Assembly (NCBI GenBank): GCA_946497695.1
Contig: CAMMLJ010000004.1
Location: 1,793-65,792 of the forward strand
Length of the DNA stretch: 64,000 bases
Reading direction: 5' to 3'
Origin: an uncultured Clostridium sp.
GTDB taxonomy: Bacteria > Bacillota > Clostridia > TANB77 > CAG-508
Shown here: positions 3,413-59,549 of the stretch, piece after piece
Numbering within the stretch: position 1 is the stretch's first letter
How the letters are laid out: each line of letters starts with the position of its first letter
Notes under the pieces: generated by a model
Told to the model about the DNA's origin: nothing
The model's input: the letters and a program-made list of their open reading frames with translations, nothing else
The model's database searches: none
Made by a program: the position numbers and the translations under genes

Positions 3413-3439
3413 GGGATTTGGGGACGTTCCTTAAATCCC
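3413..3439 (+). repeat. REP-like hairpin unit (locus A)
   Basis: GGGATTTGGGGACGTTCCTTAAATCCC. Stem GGGATTT/AAATCCC with a 13-nt loop. Starts 5 nt after the ftsZ-like stop codon. Confidence 0.9.
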
Positions 3440-7805: not shown

Positions 7806-7862
7806 GGATTATAGGAATTTGGGGACGTTCCTTTAGGGATTTGGGGACATTCCTTAAATCCC
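7803..7862 (+). repeat. REP-like cluster (locus C): partial unit plus two tandem forward units, the last one hairpin-type
   Basis: TAGGGATT.., GGAATTTGGGGACGTTCC (7814-7831), GGGATTTGGGGACATTCCTTAAATCCC (7836-7862). The pgeF stop TAG (7803-7805) is the TAG of the first TAGGGATT. Confidence 0.9.
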
Positions 7863-10122: not shown

Positions 10123-10228
10123 GAGGGAAAAAAGGAACGTCCCCAAATCCCGAGAAAGGCCACAATCCCGAGAAAATCCAAAATACCGCGGAAGGCCCGA
10201 ATCCAGAGGAAGGACAAAAAATCCCGAT
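10123..10228 (-). repeat. REP-like array (locus D): one intact reverse unit plus about four decaying tandem units
   Basis: GAGGGAAAAAAGGAACGTCCCCAAATCCCGA followed by GAAAGGCCACAATCCCGA / GAAAATCCAAAATACCGCG / GAAGGCCCGAATCCAGA / GGAAGGACAAAAAATCCCGA (17-20 nt period). Confidence 0.8.
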
Positions 10229-20391: not shown

Positions 20392-20469
20392 GGGATTTGG
20401 GACGTTCCTTTTTTCCCTGCCCGGGATTTGAGGAACGTCCCCAAATCCCGAGGAACGTCCCCAAATCCC
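20392..20469. repeat. REP-like cluster (locus E): one forward unit facing two reverse units
   Basis: GGGATTTGGGACGTTCCTTTTTTCCCT (20392-20418), then GGGATTTGAGGAACGTCCCCAAATCCC (20423-20449) and GGAACGTCCCCAAATCCC (20452-20469). Confidence 0.9.
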
Positions 20470-27235: not shown

Positions 27236-28169
27236 ATGGACTTGTTCGAAAATATTACAGGTCATGAAAATATTAAAAATATATTAGAAAATAACATAAA
27301 TACAAAAAATATATTGCATAGCTATCTATTTATAGGAGAAGAAGGTATTGGTAAAAAGATGTTAGCAAAAGAATTTGCTAAAGCAATTTTATGTACATCT
27401 GAGAATAGTAAGCCATGTGAGATTTGTAAGTCATGTGTAGAATTTAATTCAAATAATAATGTGAATTTTAATTTAATAAATGAAGAAAGCACAGCAATTA
27501 AAATCGATCAAATAAGAAATATGCAAGTTAAAATTGCAGAAAAACCAATTAATTCAGACTATAAAGTATATTTAATTAATGATGTAGAGCTTATGACAGT
27601 AGAGGCACAAAATTGTTTATTAAAAACATTGGAAGAACCACCAGAATATATTGTGATAATACTCATAACATCTAATGAAAACAAAGTTCTAAATACCATA
27701 AAATCAAGATGTATGAAATTATATTTTAATAATTTGAGTAATGCTGATATCGAAAAGGTATTAAAAGTACAGTTTGGTATGAATGATATAAATGATTCTT
27801 TCTTAGATGCTACGAGTCGGAAGTGTAAAAAAAGCATTATTAATAAAAGAAAAATCATCAGAATACGAGCAAATAAATAAATTATTTGATATAATAGATA
27901 AAGAGAATCTAGTAAATTTTATAAATTCAGCAAATATTATATATGAAAATAAAGATGATATTTATAATATATTAGATTATATAAACATATTATTGGACAT
28001 AAAAATAAGGTCAAATTCCAATAATTCTTTTAAGTTTGCAAATTGTATTTTTACGGTAGAAGAAGTTAAAAAAAGATTAAGAGCAAATAGTAATTATGAT
28101 ATGTCTATAGACTATCTATTAATGAATATGTGGAAGGAGATTAATAGTGAAAGAAGTAGTAGGTATTAA
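27236..28169 (+). pseudogene. holB: DNA polymerase III delta-prime subunit, reading frame interrupted (+1 shift)
   Basis: ORF 27236-27880 carries the AAA+ N-domain (YLFIGEEGIGKKMLA, zinc-module CxxCxxC, TIKSRC). ORF 27807-28169 (frame +1) continues with GSVKKALLI... and the C-terminal domain. An A7 run lies at 27827-27833. Confidence 0.8.
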
Positions 28170-29061
28170 ATTTAAAAAGCCAGGAAAAATATATTTTTTT
28201 GATCCAGCAGGGCTAAAGTTAAATTTGCAAGATATGGTTATAGCTGATACTGCAAATGGTGAAGAATTTGCTAAAATAGCTATGGCAAATAAATTAATGC
28301 CTGATGAGAAAATAGTAGAACCTTTAAGGAAAGTAATAAGATTGGCTAATAAAAAAGATATAAAGCAAAATGAAGAAAATAAAGAAAAAGAGAAAGAAGC
28401 TTTTAAAATAGCATTAGATAAAATAGCAAAGCATAAATTACCAATGAAGCTTATAGATGTAGAATATAAATTTGATAGAAGTAAAATATTATTTTACTTT
28501 ACAGCAGATGGTAGAATAGATTTCAGAGAATTAGTAAAAGATTTGGCAGCTATTTTTAAAACTAGAATAGAGCTTAGACAAATAGGTGTTAGAGACGAAG
28601 TTAGAAGAATGGGTGGAAATGGAGTTTGTGGCAGAGAATTATGTTGTTGCAGTTTCCTAAATAATTTTGATGCAGTTTCTATAAAGATGGCTAAAGAACA
28701 AAATATGTCATTAAACCCATCTAAAATATCTGGAGTTTGTGGTAGATTAATGTGCTGTTTAAAATATGAACAAGAAGCATACGAAGAAAAATTAGAAAGA
28801 TTGCCAAAAGTAGGCTCTATTGTAGAAACAGTTGATGGAGAAGGGACTGTAGACAGCGTAGAAATCTTAAAAGAAAATATAAGAGTAAAATTTGAAGATG
28901 ATGATGGATATCATTACAAAAAATATAAAGCAGAAGATGTCAAATTAATAAAAGCAAGCGAAACAGAAGAAATTGATCCAGAAGAGAAAGAAAATGAGAA
29001 AGAATTAGAAGAACTTGAAAAATTAGCAAAAAATGATATATTAGTAGATGATGATATGTAA
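28147..29061 (+). CDS. ricT: PSP1-domain protein RicT/YaaT (stage 0 sporulation protein)
   Basis: GTG start after AAGGAG. VVGIKFKKPGKIYFFDP and the Cys-rich CGRELCCCSF...CGRLMCCLKYE motif. Confidence 0.9.
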   Translation: MKEVVGIKFKKPGKIYFFDPAGLKLNLQDMVIADTANGEEFAKIAMANKLMPDEKIVEPLRKVIRLANKKDIKQNEENKEKEKEAFKIALDKIAKHKLPMKLIDVEYKFDRSKILFYFTADGRIDFRELVKDLAAIFKTRIELRQIGVRDEVRRMGGNGVCGRELCCCSFLNNFDAVSIKMAKEQNMSLNPSKISGVCGRLMCCLKYEQEAYEEKLERLPKVGSIVETVDGEGTVDSVEILKENIRVKFEDDDGYHYKKYKAEDVKLIKASETEEIDPEEKENEKELEELEKLAKNDILVDDDM

Positions 29062-29163
29062 TAAATATTTTTTATATAACATATAATGAATTAATGTATG
29101 ATAGTAGAAGAAAGTAGTAGCAAAATGTAGTAAAAAATATAGTACTGAAAGGTGGTGAAAAAT

Positions 29164-29334
29164 ATGGCATATAAAATAACAGATAAATGTATAAGTTGTG
29201 GAGCTTGTGCAGCAGAATGTCCAGTAGGATGCATTTCACAAGGAGATGATAAATTCGTAATCGATCCAGAAGCATGTATCTCTTGTGGTACATGTGCAGG
29301 AGTTTGCCCTGTTGAGGCGCCAGAGGAAGAATAA
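29164..29334 (+). CDS. 2x[4Fe-4S] ferredoxin
   Basis: 56 aa MAYKITDKCISCGACAAECP...CISCGTCAGVCP after AAAGGTGG. Confidence 0.9.
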   Translation: MAYKITDKCISCGACAAECPVGCISQGDDKFVIDPEACISCGTCAGVCPVEAPEEE

Positions 29335-29353
29335 ATACATAGATAAACTAGGA

Positions 29354-29382
29354 TAGGGATTTGGGGACGTTCTTTAAATCCC
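29354..29382 (+). repeat. REP-like hairpin unit (locus F, left inverted repeat of the RAYT gene)
   Basis: TAGGGATTTGGGGACGTTCTTTAAATCCC. A degenerate reverse partner follows (ATTTTAAAGAACGTTCCGTTAAAT, about 29388-29412). Confidence 0.9.
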
Positions 29383-29542
29383 TAAATTATTTTAAAGAAC
29401 GTTCCGTTAAATTAAGTATTTTGATATCTTCAAAATTTTTTAATCAATTTTTTCTTATAATTAAAATTAATTTTTTTATTATTATCTAATTTATTATTAA
29501 TTCCAAAATTTTATCCAAATTAGTAAAATAAAAGGAGGGCTG

Positions 29543-30313
29543 ATGTCTAGAATTGCCAGAAAAAATATAGTATCTAAATTTGTCCATATTGTTGCGAAAG
29601 GTATAAAGAATGAATTTATTTTTTATAAACAAGAATACAAAGAAAAGTATACATCACTATTAAACAAATCTATTAAAGAGCTAGAAGGGATAGATTTAAT
29701 AGCATATTGTATTATGGATAATCATGCACATTTATTAATACATACTGAGAAAATAAATAATATAGAAAAGCTTATGCGAAAAATAAATACAGCATATGCT
29801 ATATTTTATAACTTACAAGAAGAGAGAGCTGGATATGTTTTTTTAAATAGATATCATTCTGAAATTATAGAAAATGGGATTCATTTGCTTTCTTGCATAA
29901 AATATATCCATGAAAATCCAGTGAAAGCTGGAATAGTAGAAAAAGAGCAGTTTTATCAATATTCTTCATGCAGAGCCTTTTTAGAGGACAAGATGAGTAA
30001 TGATATTTTATGTTCAGTTTTTGGAGAGAATTTTAAATATGCATCTACCGATGTAGATAAAAAAATAGAATATCATTTTATTGATGAAGATGAAAGAGTG
30101 GAAAAAATTGAAAGAAAAGGTATAGAAATAATTATTGAAGAATTTTGCAATAAGTATAATACATCTATAGCTGAAATTAGAAAATCTAATAGCCTAATTA
30201 TAGAGTTTAAAAGCTTTTTAATGGTGAAATATAAAATAAGTAATAAAAATATTTGTGCTATATTAGGAATAGGTAAAAATAGAATTTCGCAAATAGAGAA
30301 AAAACTAAAATAA
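29543..30313 (+). CDS. REP-associated tyrosine transposase-like protein (IS200-like Y1/HUH fold) with C-terminal HTH
   Basis: 256 aa. HUH motif in YCIMDNHAHLLI, catalytic Tyr context IKYIHENPVKAGIV, C-terminal HTH-like NKNICAILGIGKNRISQIEKK. RBS AAAGGAGGG. Confidence 0.8.
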   Translation: MSRIARKNIVSKFVHIVAKGIKNEFIFYKQEYKEKYTSLLNKSIKELEGIDLIAYCIMDNHAHLLIHTEKINNIEKLMRKINTAYAIFYNLQEERAGYVFLNRYHSEIIENGIHLLSCIKYIHENPVKAGIVEKEQFYQYSSCRAFLEDKMSNDILCSVFGENFKYASTDVDKKIEYHFIDEDERVEKIERKGIEIIIEEFCNKYNTSIAEIRKSNSLIIEFKSFLMVKYKISNKNICAILGIGKNRISQIEKKLK

Positions 30314-30353
30314 GAAATAATTAAGTATTTATAATAAAAATAGTAGTAAAAGC

Positions 30354-30382
30354 GGGATTTAAAGAACGTCCCCAAATCCCTA
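30354..30382 (-). repeat. REP-like hairpin unit (locus G, right inverted repeat of the RAYT gene)
   Basis: GGGATTTAAAGAACGTCCCCAAATCCCTA. Confidence 0.9.
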
Positions 30383-30408
30383 CCAAAATCCATAAAGGAG
30401 ATGTACAA

Positions 30409-30735
30409 ATGAAGATAACTTGGCTAACTAGAAGAAAAAGTTTCGAAGAGATTAAGCCAAATAGAAAGGTAAGATATGAACAAATATTAGAAAGTTTATG
30501 TTTAGGAAATAAAACTGCTAAAGAAATTGCGGTTGAACTATATAGGCAAAAATTAACCAATACAGATGAACGTAATACAACTGCTCCAAGATTAACAGAA
30601 TTAGAAAAAATGGGTCTTGTAGAAGCAACTGCTAAGAAAACTTGTAAATATACAGGAAAAACAGTCACAGTTTACAAAATAACAAAATTGGGTTTTGAAA
30701 TTATAAATAATAGAGAAATGCATAAAAAGAGTTAA
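30409..30735 (+). CDS. small winged-helix DNA-binding protein (hypothetical)
   Basis: 108 aa after AAAGGAG; EILESL..NKTAKEIAVEL...TTAPRLTELEKMGLVEA...GKTVTVYKIT is a wHTH pattern. Confidence 0.55.
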   Translation: MKITWLTRRKSFEEIKPNRKVRYEQILESLCLGNKTAKEIAVELYRQKLTNTDERNTTAPRLTELEKMGLVEATAKKTCKYTGKTVTVYKITKLGFEIINNREMHKKS

Positions 30736-30756
30736 GATTATAGAATCTTAACTCTT
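30727..30756 (-). terminator. hairpin, probable terminator of the oxidoreductase operon (T-run on minus strand)
   Basis: AAGAGTTAAGAT / ATCTTAACTCTT 12-bp stem. The minus strand continues TTTTTATG. It overlaps the stop of the + strand wHTH gene. Confidence 0.6.
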
Positions 30757-30818
30757 AAAAAATTAAATTATAAAAGAATAAAATCATCATAGATTTGTAG
30801 CTTAAATATAATGAAAAA

Positions 30819-30849
30819 GAGGGAAAAAAGGAACGTCCCTAAATCCCTA
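30819..30849 (-). repeat. REP-like unit (locus H)
   Basis: GAGGGAAAAAAGGAACGTCCCTAAATCCCTA; the terminal CTA is the TAG stop of the beta-subunit gene. Confidence 0.9.
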
Positions 30850-31800
30850 TTCTTTATTAGTCATTTCTTCTAATTGTAATAATTCATTCCATCTCTTATC
30901 TACTATTCTTTGGAATTCTTCTATCATCCATTCATTTCCTGGTTTAAACATATGTCTAAAACGTTTTTGTGGTTTCAAGAATTCTTCTACTGGAAGTTTT
31001 TTAGCTGGTTTATATGTTATTTTATATTTACCATCTACAACTTCATATAATGGCCAATAACATGTATCTGCAGCTAATTTGTTAATTTGCATTAAGTCTT
31101 CTGTTGCATATCCCCATCCTCTTGGGCAAGGAGCCATTACATTTAAGAATGTTGGTCCTTCTGTATATATTGCTTTTTCTGCTTTTTCATATAAATCTTT
31201 AAAATTAGTCATAGCAAGAGTTTGTGCAACATATGGTAAATGATGTGATACCATTATTTCTGTTAAGTCTTTTCTCTCTTGTGCTTTACCTGGGATAACT
31301 GTTCCAGCAGGTGAAGTTGTAGTATCTGCAAATTTAGGTGTTGCAGAAGAACGTTGAATACCTGTATTCATATATGCACCATTATCATAACATACATAAA
31401 CCATATCATGACCTCTTTCCATAGCACCTGAAAGTGATTGTAAACCTATATCATAAGTTCCACCATCTCCACCAAATGCGATGAATTTTGTATGTGTATC
31501 TTCTTCTAATTTTCCTTGTTTCTTTAAAGATTTGTATGCAGCTTCAACACCAGATAATGTACTTCCAGCATTTTCGAAAGCTGTATGAATAAATGAATCT
31601 GTCCAAGATGTATATGGGTATGTAAATGTAGAAACTTCCATACATCCAGTAGCTGTAGCAATTACAGCATGATCTTCTGGCTTTAATGCACGTAAAACCA
31701 TTCTAGCAACTGGTGGAGCACCACAACCTGCACACATTTTATGCCCTTCGGAAAATCTTGAAGGTTTATTTGCGACTACTTCTTTTAAATTATATGGCAT
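30847..31800 (-). CDS. 2-oxoacid:ferredoxin oxidoreductase, beta (TPP-binding) subunit (POR/VOR type)
   Basis: 317 aa; CAGCG.P...GGDGGTYDIG TPP motif; ATG overlaps the alpha-subunit stop. Confidence 0.9.
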   Translation of the reverse strand: MPYNLKEVVANKPSRFSEGHKMCAGCGAPPVARMVLRALKPEDHAVIATATGCMEVSTFTYPYTSWTDSFIHTAFENAGSTLSGVEAAYKSLKKQGKLEEDTHTKFIAFGGDGGTYDIGLQSLSGAMERGHDMVYVCYDNGAYMNTGIQRSSATPKFADTTTSPAGTVIPGKAQERKDLTEIMVSHHLPYVAQTLAMTNFKDLYEKAEKAIYTEGPTFLNVMAPCPRGWGYATEDLMQINKLAADTCYWPLYEVVDGKYKITYKPAKKLPVEEFLKPQKRFRHMFKPGNEWMIEEFQRIVDKRWNELLQLEEMTNKE

Positions 31801-32996
31801 TATTTTTCAGCTCCTTTCGTTCTTAATCCTAAATGTCTATAAGGATTATCAATTTTTCCTGTTTCTACGATTTCTAATAAATCATTATAAACTTTTTCGA
31901 TGTCATCAGCTTTTGTATCTCTACCACCAATTCCATAGATATAACTTACTGTAGGTACATGAATATTATTTACATACATACCAGATGTAACATCTGTAAA
32001 TAATGCACCACCAGCAGCATTTAAAGAATCTGCTTTGTCTAATACAGCAACTGCTTTTACGTTTGCTAAGGCCTTAGCAATTTCTTCTGCTGGGAATGGT
32101 CTAAATACACGAACCTTTAATAATCCGGCTTTAATACCTTTGCTACGTAAATCATCAACAACGAATTTTGCAGTACCTGCTGTAGAATTCATACAAACAA
32201 CAGCAACATCTGCATCTTCTAATTTATATTCTTCAAATAAACCATATTTTCTACCTGTTAATTTTTCGAATTCTTCAGCTACTTCTAAAATAACTTTTTT
32301 AGCATTTTTCATAGCTTGTGCTTGCTGAGCTTTATGCTCGAATAAATATCCTTGTAAATCTAAAGGTCCTATAGAAATAGGTTCTTTACTATTTAATAAG
32401 TAATGTTCTGGTTTATATGTACCAACAAAATCTTTTACTTTATCATCTTCTACTAAATCTATTGTTTCTATAGAATGTGATGTAATAAATCCATCTTGGC
32501 AAACCATTAATGGTAATAAAACATCTTTATGTTCTGCAATTCTATGAGCCATTAATAAGTTATCATATGCTTCTTGATTACTTTCTGAAAATAGCATTAT
32601 CCATCCCGCATCACGAACACCCATTGCATCAGAGTGATCATTGTGGATATTTAATGGTCCAGATACAGCACGATTTACAAGTGACATTACTATAGGTAAA
32701 CGTAATGATGAAGCTATATATATCATTTCCCACATGAATGATAAACCATTTGATGATGTAGCTGTCATTGCTCTTGCTCCTGCAGCTTCTGCACCAACAC
32801 AGGCACTCATTGCACTATGTTCACTTTCTACTGCAACGAATTCTGTATCAACAGCACCATTGCTAACAAAAGTAGAAAAATATTGTGGTATTTCTGTTGA
32901 TGGTGTAATAGGGAAGGCAGCAACAACGTCTGGATTTATTTGTTTCATAGCTGTAGCTGCAGCTTCATTACCACTTAAACGTTCTCTAATACTCAT
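31800..32996 (-). CDS. 2-oxoacid:ferredoxin oxidoreductase, alpha subunit
   Basis: 398 aa; LSGNEAAATAMKQINPDVVAAFPITPSTEI typical N-terminus. Confidence 0.9.
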   Translation of the reverse strand: MSIRERLSGNEAAATAMKQINPDVVAAFPITPSTEIPQYFSTFVSNGAVDTEFVAVESEHSAMSACVGAEAAGARAMTATSSNGLSFMWEMIYIASSLRLPIVMSLVNRAVSGPLNIHNDHSDAMGVRDAGWIMLFSESNQEAYDNLLMAHRIAEHKDVLLPLMVCQDGFITSHSIETIDLVEDDKVKDFVGTYKPEHYLLNSKEPISIGPLDLQGYLFEHKAQQAQAMKNAKKVILEVAEEFEKLTGRKYGLFEEYKLEDADVAVVCMNSTAGTAKFVVDDLRSKGIKAGLLKVRVFRPFPAEEIAKALANVKAVAVLDKADSLNAAGGALFTDVTSGMYVNNIHVPTVSYIYGIGGRDTKADDIEKVYNDLLEIVETGKIDNPYRHLGLRTKGAEK

Positions 32997-33388: not shown

Positions 33389-33440
33389 AGGGAAAAAAGG
33401 AACGTCCCTAAATCCCTAGCAAAATTGCTAAAAATCCCTA
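33389..33440 (-). repeat. REP-like unit plus partial unit (locus I), inside the oxidoreductase operon
   Basis: AGGGAAAAAAGGAACGTCCCTAAATCCCTA, then palindrome TAGCAAAATTGCTA, then AAAATCCCTA whose CTA is the TAG stop of the gamma gene. Confidence 0.9.
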
Positions 33441-40706: not shown

Positions 40707-40757
40707 AGAACGTTCTGATTTTTCTTTAAAGGAGAAATTCAGAACGTTCTTTTTTTT
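40707..40757 (+). terminator. strong intrinsic terminator after mazF
   Basis: AGAACGTTCTGATTTTTC / GAGAAATTCAGAACGTTCT stem followed by T7. Confidence 0.85.
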
Positions 40758-40778: not shown

Positions 40779-40841
40779 AGGGAAAAGAGGAACGTCCCCA
40801 AATCCCGAAAAGGGAAAAAAAGGAACGTTCCCAAATCCCTA
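40779..40841 (-). repeat. REP-like cluster (locus J): two tandem reverse units
   Basis: AGGGAAAAGAGGAACGTCCCCAAATCCC and AGGGAAAAAAAGGAACGTTCCCAAATCCCTA; the terminal CTA is the TAG stop of the HD-GYP gene. Confidence 0.9.
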
Positions 40842-46463: not shown

Positions 46464-46552
46464 TTAGGGATATGGGGACATTCCTAGAAAATTGGGACAT
46501 TCCCAGAAAATTGGGACATTCCCAGGGATTTGGGGACGTTCCTTTTTTCCCT
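46464..46552 (+). repeat. REP-like tandem array (locus K): four forward units, 19-20 nt period
   Basis: TAGGGATATGGGGACATTCC / TAGAAAATTGGGACATTCC / CAGAAAATTGGGACATTCC / CAGGGATTTGGGGACGTTCCTTTTTTCCCTC. Confidence 0.9.
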
Positions 46553-46595: not shown

Positions 46596-46635
46596 AAGAA
46601 ATCTCTATTAAAAATATGGATTTTTAGAAACGTCC

Positions 46636-47265
46636 TTATGTCCCGATTCCTCTCAAAATCCCAATAACTATTAATATAATACCAGATATTATATTCCATT
46701 TTTTTAAGGATGTGTTATACAACACAATTCGCTTACCAAGAATAATTCCAGCATTAAGAAAAATGAATTGAAAAAGAGGTACAAGTATAGGAAATAGTAA
46801 ACTATATATTCCAAATGATGAACTTGTAATACCAACACATATAGAATCTAAAGAAAGAGCAAACGCTAAGTATAATGCTTCATTTTTTTCAATTACTTTT
46901 GAGTTATTTAAATCAGAAGAGATTGGATTTCTAATGATTTGTATTGTTATACCTAAAGATTTTAGAAATATCTTATGACTTTTATATTCTTTTTTTTCAT
47001 TAGTATTCATTGCTTCATATATAATTAAAAATCCCATTAGGTATAGAAGAATTACACTAATAATTTTTATTACATTAGCCGGAAGGATAGAAATTAGGAA
47101 ATATCCAAACGCAACAGAAATACCTACAAAAAGTAAAGAAACAAAAAACAAGATAAATTTTGCAGGAGTAGATAATGATGTTTTCCTAAGCCCATATGTA
47201 ATTCCAATCCCAAACGAATCAATACTAACAGATAAAGCAAGCAGGATAATAGTAATTAGCATCAT
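46636..47265 (-). CDS. ytaF: sporulation membrane protein YtaF (MntP/DUF204-like)
   Basis: 209 aa; LSVSIDSFGIGITYGLRK N-terminal motif repeated in the C-terminal half (LSLDSICVGITSS). Confidence 0.75.
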   Translation of the reverse strand: MMLITIILLALSVSIDSFGIGITYGLRKTSLSTPAKFILFFVSLLFVGISVAFGYFLISILPANVIKIISVILLYLMGFLIIYEAMNTNEKKEYKSHKIFLKSLGITIQIIRNPISSDLNNSKVIEKNEALYLAFALSLDSICVGITSSSFGIYSLLFPILVPLFQFIFLNAGIILGKRIVLYNTSLKKWNIISGIILIVIGILRGIGT

Positions 47266-52374: not shown

Positions 52375-52445
52375 GGATTTGGATAGGGATTTGGGACATT
52401 CCTTTTTTCCCTAATAGGGATTTGGGGACGTTCCTTAAATCCCTA
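52375..52445 (+). repeat. REP-like cluster (locus L): two forward units (T-tract type, then hairpin type)
   Basis: GGGATTTGGGACATTCCTTTTTTCCCT and TAGGGATTTGGGGACGTTCCTTAAATCCCTA. Confidence 0.9.
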
Positions 52446-52520
52446 TTATAAAATACTGCATATATTGTATATTAAGTGTATGTTAAAATCAATAAAAACA
52501 CAGATTTTTCACAAAAGAGT

Positions 52521-54446: not shown

Positions 54447-54448
54447 GA

Positions 54449-54481
54449 TAGGGATTTAGGGACGTTCCTCTAAAATCCCTA
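54449..54481 (+). repeat. REP-like hairpin unit (locus M)
   Basis: TAGGGATTTAGGGACGTTCCTCTAAAATCCCTA followed by T6. Confidence 0.9.
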
Positions 54482-54489
54482 TTTTTTAT

Positions 54490-57475: not shown

Positions 57476-57486
57476 GATTTTTCAAA

Positions 57487-57517
57487 TAGGGATTTAAGGA
57501 ACGTCCCCCAATCCCTA
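57487..57517 (-). repeat. REP-like hairpin unit (locus N)
   Basis: TAGGGATTTAAGGAACGTCCCCCAATCCCTA, 5 nt from the serS stop codon. Confidence 0.9.
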
Positions 57518-57521
57518 TTTT

Positions 57522-59180: not shown

Positions 59181-59420
59181 AAACAAAAATCGTCCTTATA
59201 TAAATATATAAGGACGAATATAATCCGCGGTGCCACCTTAAGTTATTATAAAAATAATACACTCAATTAGTAGGGTAACCGCCTAACTTACGGTTTAGTT
59301 TTCACTAAAAACATCTAAGAGTAGATTCACATATAAATTTTATTTACTTACACCACCCGTAAACTCTCTTAAAAAATTAAATATGTTACTATTCTCTTAT
59401 CAAACGTTTATATTAATATG
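59181..59420 (-). ncRNA. T-box leader (candidate Ser/UCU specifier) controlling DUF1653-serS
   Basis: Minus strand shows stem I AGAGA/GGTGGTG elements and GAA-TCT-A in the specifier position (UCU = 59323-59325). T-box AACTTAAGGTGGCACCGCGG (59225-59244). Terminator TCGTCCTTATATA/TATATAAGGACGA plus T-run. Confidence 0.75.
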
Positions 59421-59455: not shown

Positions 59456-59492
59456 TAAAAATTGTAAAAATTATTATATGAATTTGATAAGA

Positions 59493-59541
59493 GGGTTTTG
59501 GAACGTGCCATAGGGATTTGGGGACGTTGTTTAAATCCCTA
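59493..59541 (+). repeat. REP-like cluster (locus O): degenerate unit plus hairpin unit
   Basis: GGGTTTTGGAACGTGCC then TAGGGATTTGGGGACGTTGTTTAAATCCCTA. Confidence 0.85.
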
Positions 59542-59549
59542 TTTGATAC

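Follow-up and report, generated by a model that had tools for sequence, protein, structure and literature searches.

The DNA analysed here is a stretch of 64,000 nucleotides from an uncultured Clostridium sp. (the window; G+C 27.9%; window coordinates are used throughout). At positions 29354-30382 it carries a cassette of 1,029 bp, measured arm to arm, in which a gene for a HUH/Y1 transposase-like protein of 256 amino acids (Y1) is enclosed by two inverted copies of a short hairpin unit that is dispersed over the window (Table 1). The initial annotation, made from the sequence alone, had reported a perfect inverted pair of 29 nt around this gene. This was borne out: the arms at 29354-29382 and 30354-30382 are 29 nt each, 100% complementary and spaced by 971 nt, and in 200 shuffled versions of the region 28800-31000 the longest inverted repeat had a mean length of 12.9 nt and never exceeded 20 nt. 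The arms are referred to below as the left and right terminal inverted repeats (TIR-L and TIR-R). TIR-R starts 41 nt past the Y1 stop codon and ends 26 nt ahead of the ATG of the next gene. As DNA, TIR-L folds with -6.8 kcal/mol (z -3.25), and both TIRs are terminator-like by score on the strand that reads GGGGAC, which for TIR-L is the + strand. The degenerate inverted partner that had been described beside the left copy is real; the segment 29391-29405 is 93% complementary to 29364-29378 and has been kept in the L087 lineage. Both flanking copies carry a GTTCT variant which had been called private. Within the window it is indeed confined to these two copies, but in the wider population it is not private, as it was found in 24/138 units in gut-metagenome contigs and also in L083 and L085 at a neighbouring site.

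The Y1 protein contains the sequences MDNHAHLLI and YIHENPVKAG, from which a HUH motif and a catalytic tyrosine had been proposed. In a profile search the protein matched Pfam family PF01797 (Y1_Tnp) with 35.4 bits (cut-off 23, E 1.4e-8), and the same family matched 21/21 aligned homologues. In the alignment of these 21 homologues the residues N60, H61, H63, Y121, N125, P126, S141, and S142 are invariant, giving the motifs N60-H61-x-H63 and Y121-I-H-x-N-P. Loss of the catalytic residues in an alignment, which the initial annotation had named as a refuting observation, was thus not seen. As no homologue in the family departs from the HUH and Tyr residues of the active site, nuclease activity appears to have been retained. 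An AlphaFold2 (AF2) model with a pLDDT of 81.8 predicted a HUH ferredoxin-like core, for which the best fold match in the PDB was 4er8_A, the E. coli REP (repetitive extragenic palindrome) transposase bound to a REP hairpin (E 1.3e-6). The next matches were the ISDra2, IS608, and IS200 transposases, with 4er8, 2xo6, 2vjv and others lying at E 1e-6 to 1e-3, and a profile-to-PDB sequence search agreed with this structure-based ranking. Residues ~191-255 were modeled as a separate five-helix domain (pLDDT 88.5). Its profile matches to helix-turn-helix (HTH) families were weak (sigma-70 r4, Xre, and Lrp-type), and its top fold match was the DNA-binding domain of DnaA (3pvp_A, TM 0.53, but E 0.7). 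The C-terminal HTH that had been assigned from the sequence is thus supported by the predicted helical domain together with the weak profile matches, whereas a DnaA-like subtype is only suggested by the model.

The hairpin unit that forms the TIRs recurs as ~22 units at ~15 intergenic loci in the window. For the dispersed repeat reported earlier, 14 loci had been counted. The same pattern found no match in 100 shuffles, and among all 16-mers of the window GGGATTTGGGGACGTT from the arm ranks first in frequency (10 copies in 64 kb). Two types of unit can be distinguished. Type A units have the form GGGATTT-GGGGACGTTCCTT-AAATCCC, often extended by TA...TA, and fold well as single-stranded DNA, with z values of -3 to -5.6; on the G-rich strand, G·T pairs add to the stem. 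The folding of type B units (...CCTTTTTTCCC) is weak. Arrays consist of 19-20-nt modules of 5' stem plus core followed by a single closing 3' stem, as at 7814-7862, 20423-20469, and 46467-46551. No Rfam family matched the repeat; the sole Rfam match in the window was a T-box.

Table 1. Features of the Y1 cassette and the dispersed hairpin units in the window.
Feature	Position	Strand	Remarks
TIR-L, left terminal inverted repeat	29354..29384	+	hairpin unit TAGGGATTT-GGGGACGTTCTTT-AAATCCCTA; ferredoxin stop codon 20 nt before
Partial inverted copy of unit core	29391..29405	-	TTTAAAGAACGTTCC; 12 nt inside TIR-L, giving a REPIN-like pair
Y1 HUH gene, 256 aa	29543..30313	+	good ribosome-binding site (AAAGGAGG) upstream; sole intact open reading frame between the arms
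HUH motif H61-A-H63	29723-29731	+	within Y1 gene
Tyr121 codon (YIHENP)	29903-29905	+	within Y1 gene
SS motif	29963-29968	+	within Y1 gene
C-terminal five-helix HTH domain (predicted), residues ~191-255	30113..30307	+	predicted fold and weak HTH profile matches
TIR-R, right terminal inverted repeat	30354..30382	-	exact reverse complement of 29354-29382
Dispersed unit, hairpin type A	3413..3439	+	5 nt past stop codon
Two tandem units	7814..7862	+	first without 3' stem
Dispersed unit, type B	10125..10153	-	3' part TTTTTTCCC
Cluster: one + unit (type B) facing two tandem - units	20392..20469	.	one tandem module fewer in L082
Dispersed unit, type B	30820..30849	-	5' TAG is stop codon of thiamine pyrophosphate (TPP)-enzyme gene; type-A GTTCT allele in L083 and L085
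Dispersed unit, type B	33390..33416	-	followed by 22-nt insertion duplicating outer stem, absent in L116
Two adjacent units	40780..40837	.	one with palindromic core GGAACGTTCC
Array of four modules of 5' stem plus core, ~19-nt period, one 3' stem	46467..46551	+	degenerate inverted unit at ~46618-46644
Two tandem units: type B, then type A with 12-bp stem	52386..52448	+	
Dispersed unit, hairpin with 10-bp stem	54448..54482	+	
Dispersed unit, hairpin with 11-bp stem	57484..57520	-	between convergent genes
Inverted pair: degenerate - unit and + unit (core GTTGT)	59492..59542	.	

The 1-kb unit occurs once in the window. In gut-metagenome assemblies all contigs with an identical protein, or with orthologues of ~89-90% identity, carried the gene at the same syntenic site, in the order PSP1, 56-aa ferredoxin, Y1, 108-aa winged helix-turn-helix (wHTH) protein, and 2-oxoacid:ferredoxin oxidoreductase (OFOR) operon. 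The orthologue lineages at this shared site are P0002 (89% identical) and P0122, which is a member of the 90%-identity cluster of P0002. Compared to the P0002 lineage, the dS of the Y1 gene was 0.21 and that of its neighbours ranged from 0.11 to 0.70; the corresponding dN/dS values were 0.24 and 0.01-0.10. These values indicate that the Y1 gene is under purifying selection, somewhat relaxed, and vertical descent is indicated because the chromosomal site is shared by three lineages and the dS is comparable to that of the neighbours. The TIRs are conserved as well. In the L087 lineage, whose Y1 gene is 92.6% identical at the nucleotide level, TIR-L (31/31) and TIR-R (29/29) are unchanged, the inner spacer is 90% identical, and the 19 nt outside TIR-L are 53% identical. 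A metagenome scan for the unit covered at least 120 stretches, which total 931 kb, come mostly from the human gut and have a median G+C of 28%, and gave at least 142 units in at least 93 distinct flank contexts among the stretches listed; no close copy of the Y1 gene was present among them.

One strain (L101) encodes an identical TPP-enzyme protein and does not have the cassette. Homology between it and the Y1-bearing strains breaks off no more than ~5 nt from the outer edge of TIR-L, and on the other side it begins again at the start codon (ATG) of the wHTH gene. Because the segment that L101 does not have is exactly the one from TIR to TIR, the TIR-bounded kilobase behaves as a discrete module. 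At the orthologous position of 29335-30408 (L101 1812-2507) a segment of ~690 bp with a HicB-like antitoxin gene on the opposite strand replaces the cassette.

A compact unit of 1,029 bp with perfect TIRs that is absent as a block from one strain could be an ordinary autonomous insertion sequence (IS), in which case the short dispersed repeats would be solo ends, similar to miniature inverted-repeat transposable elements (MITEs), that an actively transposing element had left behind or mobilised in trans. The protein group to which Y1 is assigned below, Group 1, is the most IS-like of the RAYT (REP-associated tyrosine transposase) groups, with 6.3% duplicates and some members on plasmids (Bertels 2017, PMC5581495). 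Elements of the IS200/IS605 family (IS608 and ISDra2 TnpA) share with Y1 the HUH/Y1 fold and the catalytic residues, and they too have DNA hairpins as substrates. However, those elements are multi-copy, have subterminal hairpins in direct orientation, a Y---Q motif, often a tnpB gene, and no HTH, whereas here the hairpins are inverted, the tyrosine stands in a class 2 motif (YIHENP), and no tnpB-like open reading frame was found in 28000-32000. The copy number also speaks against this explanation. The initial annotation had named many identical copies of the whole unit as the sign of an ordinary IS, and there were no extra 1-kb copies in the window, where there is one, at the single syntenic site, where the gene is shared by three lineages with a dS like that of its neighbours, or in the 931 kb of repeat-bearing stretches listed. 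Moreover, TIRs that are identical between lineages while the gene has diverged by 7% of its nucleotides are unlike a recent insertion. We consider an ordinary IS very unlikely.

The association between gene and repeat was examined in a set of homologues with 27-58% protein identity, taken from a scan of genome contigs (at least 80 loci, none above 58% identity among the matches listed). The hosts are mostly metagenome-assembled genomes (MAGs) of Clostridia, and include Sporomusa acidovorans, Syntrophomonas wolfei, Desulforamulus, Halobacillus, an Endomicrobia MAG, and an NPL-UPA2 MAG. Local alignment of the upstream flank with the reverse-complemented downstream flank revealed inverted flanks in most of 80 homologue loci, nearly all of them with GGGAC. 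A strict alignment-free test asked for a loop with GGAC[AG] that is closed by 5 bp or more of perfect stem; 69 loci, mostly from Bacillota, had sufficient flanking sequence for it. Such a hairpin was present upstream on the coding strand in 35/69, downstream on the opposite strand in 33/69, and on both sides in 26/69. The reverse polarity occurred in only 2 and 4 of the 69 loci, and shuffled flanks gave 1.35. The 72 flanking units had 42 distinct inner stems around a conserved loop, (G)GGGAC-G-[GT]-T-Y-C-T (GGGGACG[GT]TYCT), with loop lengths of 7 to 18 nt; a G preceded the anchor (position -1) in 99% of these units, though the search did not demand it. Because the structure is conserved while the stem sequence varies, recognition of a folded hairpin is pointed to.

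At many loci copies of the unit are also dispersed within 20 kb, for example around the Sporomusa gene (10 extra copies) and in L003, L027, L063, L074, and L080. The inner stem of the TIR of their own locus was present in 36% of the dispersed units, compared to 1.5% across loci, and stem sharing climbed with protein identity from 0% to 6% to 38%. Such own-stem sharing is, at the level of these sequences, the property of REP-RAYT systems that each enzyme has its own repeat family. The association between gene family and repeat across genomes, the lack of which had been considered decisive against a REP-RAYT system, is therefore present in the form of inverted flanks, fixed polarity, and stem sharing. 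The same data bear on the explanation that an unrelated repeat family already had an inverted pair at this site and that the Y1 gene landed in it, whether accidentally or through target preference. Target preference has a precedent in IS1397, which targets REPs, and TIR-L lies 20 nt past the ferredoxin stop codon, a position typical of the ordinary dispersed units. Yet the layout recurs around homologues of 27-58% identity in dozens of unrelated genomes, with different stems and with the same loop and polarity. Polarity and own-stem sharing strongly disfavour a coincidental landing, which we regard as extremely improbable.

The placement of the units relative to genes was classified for 169 units from the window and low-GC metagenome loci, using a crude caller of open reading frames and counting orthologous sites from different samples repeatedly. 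Only 9 units lay inside open reading frames, 11 were in divergent intergenic regions, and 14 at locus edges. Between tandem genes 59 were sense and 29 antisense to the upstream gene, and between convergent genes 23 were sense relative to the nearer gene versus 4 antisense. The median distance past the stop codon was 16 nt. Proteobacterial REPs have been reported to be tolerated, or to serve as hairpins that terminate or stabilise transcripts (Di Nocera, De Gregorio & Rocco 2013, BMC Genomics 14:522), and the sense bias at gene ends suggests the same for the present units.

Comparison of strains shows that the repeat family is dynamic within the species. Strains differ by one tandem module at 20423-20469, one site holds three units in L180 versus one in L143, and at 30820-30848 the type-B unit is replaced by a type-A GTTCT allele in L083 and L085. 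Insertions of 12 nt (30383-30394) and 22 nt (~33417-33438), next to TIR-R and to the 33390 unit, respectively, are absent in sister lineages. Each repeats the outer stem half AAATCC[CA]TA and is located precisely where the 5' foot of its unit lies. These stem-foot duplications may be the mark of a strand that was cut and rejoined, or the result of slippage.

Placement and turnover would also agree with hairpins that are host elements, such as terminators, mRNA 3' stabilisers, or protein-binding sites, and that are spread and homogenised by slippage and recombination; the Y1-HTH protein would then be a sequence-specific binding or regulatory protein, or a nuclease that processes forks stalled at these hairpins, and not a copier. 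The units do lie at a median of 16 nt past stop codons, in sense orientation, and are terminator-like, all polymorphisms seen fit slippage or recombination, the best fold match of the HTH is the DnaA DNA-binding domain, and non-transposition roles have been suggested for proteins of the subclass discussed below (Quentin 2018, PMC6006769). On the other hand, the invariance of HUH and Tyr across the family argues for a retained nuclease activity, slippage cannot account for the seeding of 93 or more unrelated sites, and type B units fold weakly. The strict flank polarity in dozens of genomes and the co-divergence of stem and protein are what a cognate enzyme-substrate pair predicts. We consider it unlikely that the hairpins are primarily host elements which the enzyme does not copy.

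To place the protein within its family it was compared by BLASTP to the RAYT and TIRYT reference sequences of Di Nocera 2013 (Additional file 5). Matches to 13 main-group TIRYTs scored 68-98 bits and aligned from residue 1 over the N-terminal 140-210 residues, the top ones being Geobacter gbm_2474, Desulforudis dau_2153, and Pelobacter pca_3049. Canonical RAYTs gave 27-45 bits, with 27 bits for E. coli b228. On these sequence comparisons the protein groups with the TIRYT clade, which is Group 1 of the RAYTs and subclass 2.1. According to Quentin 2018 (PMC6006769), subclass 2.1 corresponds to Bertels Group 1, is equated with TIRYT, and comprises long proteins (median length ~238 aa) with an SS motif after the Tyr and a C-terminal HTH like Bac_DnaA_C, HTH_23, or HTH_28. 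The signatures in Table 1 of that paper are NH[VYF]H, W[EQ]/FQ, and YIELNP or Y[IV]HLNP; the motifs of the present family (NH[AV]H, F-x, and YIHxNP) are close variants of these and not exact matches. The supplementary tables of the same study hold no Clostridia entries that link the present clade to subclass 2.1. At E <= 1e-30 the family has 1,877 representatives at 50% identity.

The similarity to TIRtrons, the systems formed by TIRYT genes and their terminal inverted repeats, extends beyond the alignment scores, which are the best obtained (68-98 bits) and include the one Firmicute of the set, Desulforudis dau_2153. Y1 is a long protein (256 aa) with a C-terminal HTH, a class-2 tyrosine motif (Y..xNP), and an SS motif of which both residues (S141-S142) are invariant. 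TIRYT genes are bracketed by terminal inverted repeats with a GGGGWSAS motif (Di Nocera 2013, BMC Genomics 14:522), and the present gene lies between terminal inverted repeats with a G-rich motif near it. By motif string alone, GGGGACGT of the window fits GGGGWSAS at 6/8 positions, and GGGGACGG and GGGGACAC of homologue loci fit at 7/8 and 8/8. In the array at 46467-46551 the inner modules have the core variant GGGACATTCC with a 19-nt period (GGGACATTCCCAGAAAATT), and GGGGACAT of this array is nearer to GGGGWSAS than the majority core. There are differences as well. The host is an uncultured Clostridium of the gut, and TIRYT studies have barely sampled the Bacillota, in which the pattern is widespread. 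The density of the repeat, with 10 flanking 16-mers in 64 kb, far exceeds the values published for this clade. In addition, the TIR is itself a short REP-sized hairpin of which the loop is the conserved part, and the middle residue of the HuH motif is Ala or Val (NHAH).

REPtrons, in which a RAYT or TnpA(REP) is paired with REP/BIME or REPIN sequences in E. coli and Pseudomonas, are reportedly described in the work of Nunvar from 2010, of Bertels & Rainey from 2011, and of Ton-Hoang from 2012. As in those systems, the Y1 gene of the present locus is single-copy and vertically inherited, and a dispersed extragenic palindrome flanks it in inverted copies. Other shared traits are a separate repeat family for each enzyme and a location of the repeats mainly at gene 3' ends; the closest solved fold is 4er8. 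In contrast to REPtrons, sequence similarity is low (16-20%; 27 bits to E. coli b228), the match to the NCBIfam RAYT model is below its cut-off, and the protein has an extra HTH domain that is absent from Group 2 and Group 3 RAYTs. The loop of the present hairpin is large (~13 nt) and conserved, whereas the canonical REP loop is small and variable. Furthermore the unit has no unpaired 5' GTAG (GT[AG]G) at the foot of the hairpin. Its 5' flank is [TC][AC]GGGATTT, of which the TA or CG pairs with the 3' end inside the stem, and GTAG occurs once, by chance, at TIR-R. The REP-RAYT arrangement proposed in the initial annotation is thus supported, with two refinements: the protein falls outside the RAYT groups of E. 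coli and Pseudomonas, and the conserved part of the repeat is its loop and not a 5' GTAG foot.

Taken together, we consider it probable that 29354-30382 is a module of the TIRtron/REPtron type, consisting of a domesticated single-copy Y1-HTH endonuclease and its cognate family of REP-like hairpins. What the sequences show directly is the anatomy, the family assignment, the single copy with its synteny, purifying selection, the conserved TIRs, the association across genomes with covarying stems, and the bias in position and orientation. The structure 4er8 of E. coli TnpA(REP) and the biochemistry of IS608 TnpA provide an established basis for a mechanism. In such a mechanism the enzyme would bind the folded hairpin on single-stranded DNA, read its loop with the help of the HTH, and use Tyr121 and the metal bound by the HUH motif to nick the strand close to the foot of the hairpin, after which the strand would be rejoined. 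Units would in this way be created, converted or deleted, and the family maintained. The chromosome would carry a dense set of non-autonomous hairpin copies as singles, inverted pairs, and tandem arrays of 5' stem plus core, and most copies, located just past stop codons with the G-rich strand in the mRNA sense, might act as terminator or 3'-stabiliser hairpins.

Several observations weigh against this interpretation. Binding, cleavage, and mobilisation of the units by the present enzyme, and a benefit to the host, are proposed by analogy. The NCBIfam model NF047646 (REP_Tyr_transpos) scored 60.5 bits against an equivalog cut-off of 80 and covered residues 43-141 only; because of this score the protein is placed outside the E. 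coli and Pseudomonas RAYT groups. For the clade itself the literature gives little indication of dense repeats: no REPs for subclass 2.1 (Quentin 2018, PMC6006769), ~12 copies of the flanking 16-mer per replicon for Group 1 (Bertels 2017, PMC5581495), and TIRs that are 'moderately abundant', compared to 10 flanking 16-mers in 64 kb here. The genome-wide copy number is an extrapolation from the 64-kb window and at least 120 metagenome stretches. Across homologues, the strict hairpin test was negative in about half of the 69 loci, and many homologue loci had no dispersed copies within 20 kb. L101, despite having no cassette, still carries a hairpin at the orthologue of 30820-30848, in which the stem is unchanged and the loop differs (CGGGATTT-GATGTCACTCCTT-AAAATCCCG). 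No clean filled-versus-empty site for a dispersed unit was found across the strains compared, and the polymorphisms seen consist of tandem module number, one allele replacement, and small stem-foot duplications, for which slippage or homologous recombination could suffice.

A more general proposal is that across Bacillota each Y1-HTH protein of subclass 2.1 maintains genome-specific REP-like hairpins, which would be recognised by the conserved loop GGGGACG[GT]TYCT on a covarying stem and of which some would reach copy numbers at or above those of proteobacterial REPINs. This extension we regard as possible, at somewhat less than even odds. TIRYT/TIRtron systems are already known, including TIR families that are self-complementary and moderately repeated (Di Nocera 2013, BMC Genomics 14:522), and Group 1 RAYTs have been noted in Clostridia (Bertels 2017, PMC5581495). 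A literature search for the core sequence returned unrelated primers only, and a search for RAYT or REP work in Clostridia and Firmicutes, incomplete in its coverage, found nothing beyond the three classification papers. Relative to the literature searched, the density of the family in this window, the rule of a conserved loop on a covarying stem, and the breadth in Bacillota appear to be new.

Of the short sequence populations that are maintained by vertical descent in bacterial genomes, REP-RAYT pairs have been studied best, almost always in Proteobacteria. The present locus is a clear Gram-positive counterpart in a common gut organism, with an enzyme from a clade that has been reported as REP-less (subclass 2.1) or weakly repeat-associated (Group 1). 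The conserved loop, the covarying stems, and the fixed polarity predict what the enzyme reads. If the more general proposal is true, reading of the loop would be a recognition logic unlike that of classical REPs with their GTAG foot. An association with REPs would then exist also for the RAYT group that is the largest and has been taken as 'REP-less', and REP-RAYT populations would not be essentially proteobacterial or cyanobacterial; abundant uncultured Clostridia of the human gut, Sporomusa, Syntrophomonas, and Desulforamulus would be included. For practical purposes, the units mark gene 3' ends and vary between strains, which is relevant to terminator annotation, strain typing, and assembly breaks in gut metagenomes.

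The gene next to the cassette (30409-30735, + strand) encodes the 108-aa predicted wHTH protein, and its ribosome-binding site begins ~8 nt past TIR-R. Matches of this protein to PadR, TrmB, and Replic_Relax were weak and all below cut-off. The gene was considered as a part of the module and rejected as such, being kept both with and without the cassette. Since it is conserved in both situations, the gene must, in the present strain, be transcribed from a promoter inside the cassette or from one whose transcripts run through it. In the P0122 lineage (L225-L228 11326-16640) a 5.3-kb gene for a SpaA/MucBP-type adhesin is located between the wHTH gene and the oxidoreductase operon, at the orthologues of 30735/30847.

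On the other side of the cassette, a prophage with tape-measure, holin, and GH25 or Amidase_2 lysin genes occupies the 3' end of the 56-aa ferredoxin gene in L086 (9400-10000), L096, L098, and L100. Its junction is just left of TIR-L, at the orthologue of ~29300 (...GTTGAGGCGCCAGAGGAAGAATAA), and the phage restores the end of the ferredoxin gene. The TIR was considered as the attachment site of this prophage and rejected, as the junction falls in the 3' end of the ferredoxin gene.

Adjoining the units at 40780-40837 there are two perfect palindromes AGAACGTTCT, 34 nt apart, at 40707-40716 and 40741-40750. The core word of these palindromes recurs in the partial inverted partner of TIR-L (29391-29405), and the palindromes may represent remnants of unit cores or a binding site of another kind. 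The T-box leader in the window lies at 59207-59412 on the - strand (Rfam RF00230, 110.5 bits with a gathering score of 93), and the inverted unit pair at 59492-59542 is positioned just upstream of it.

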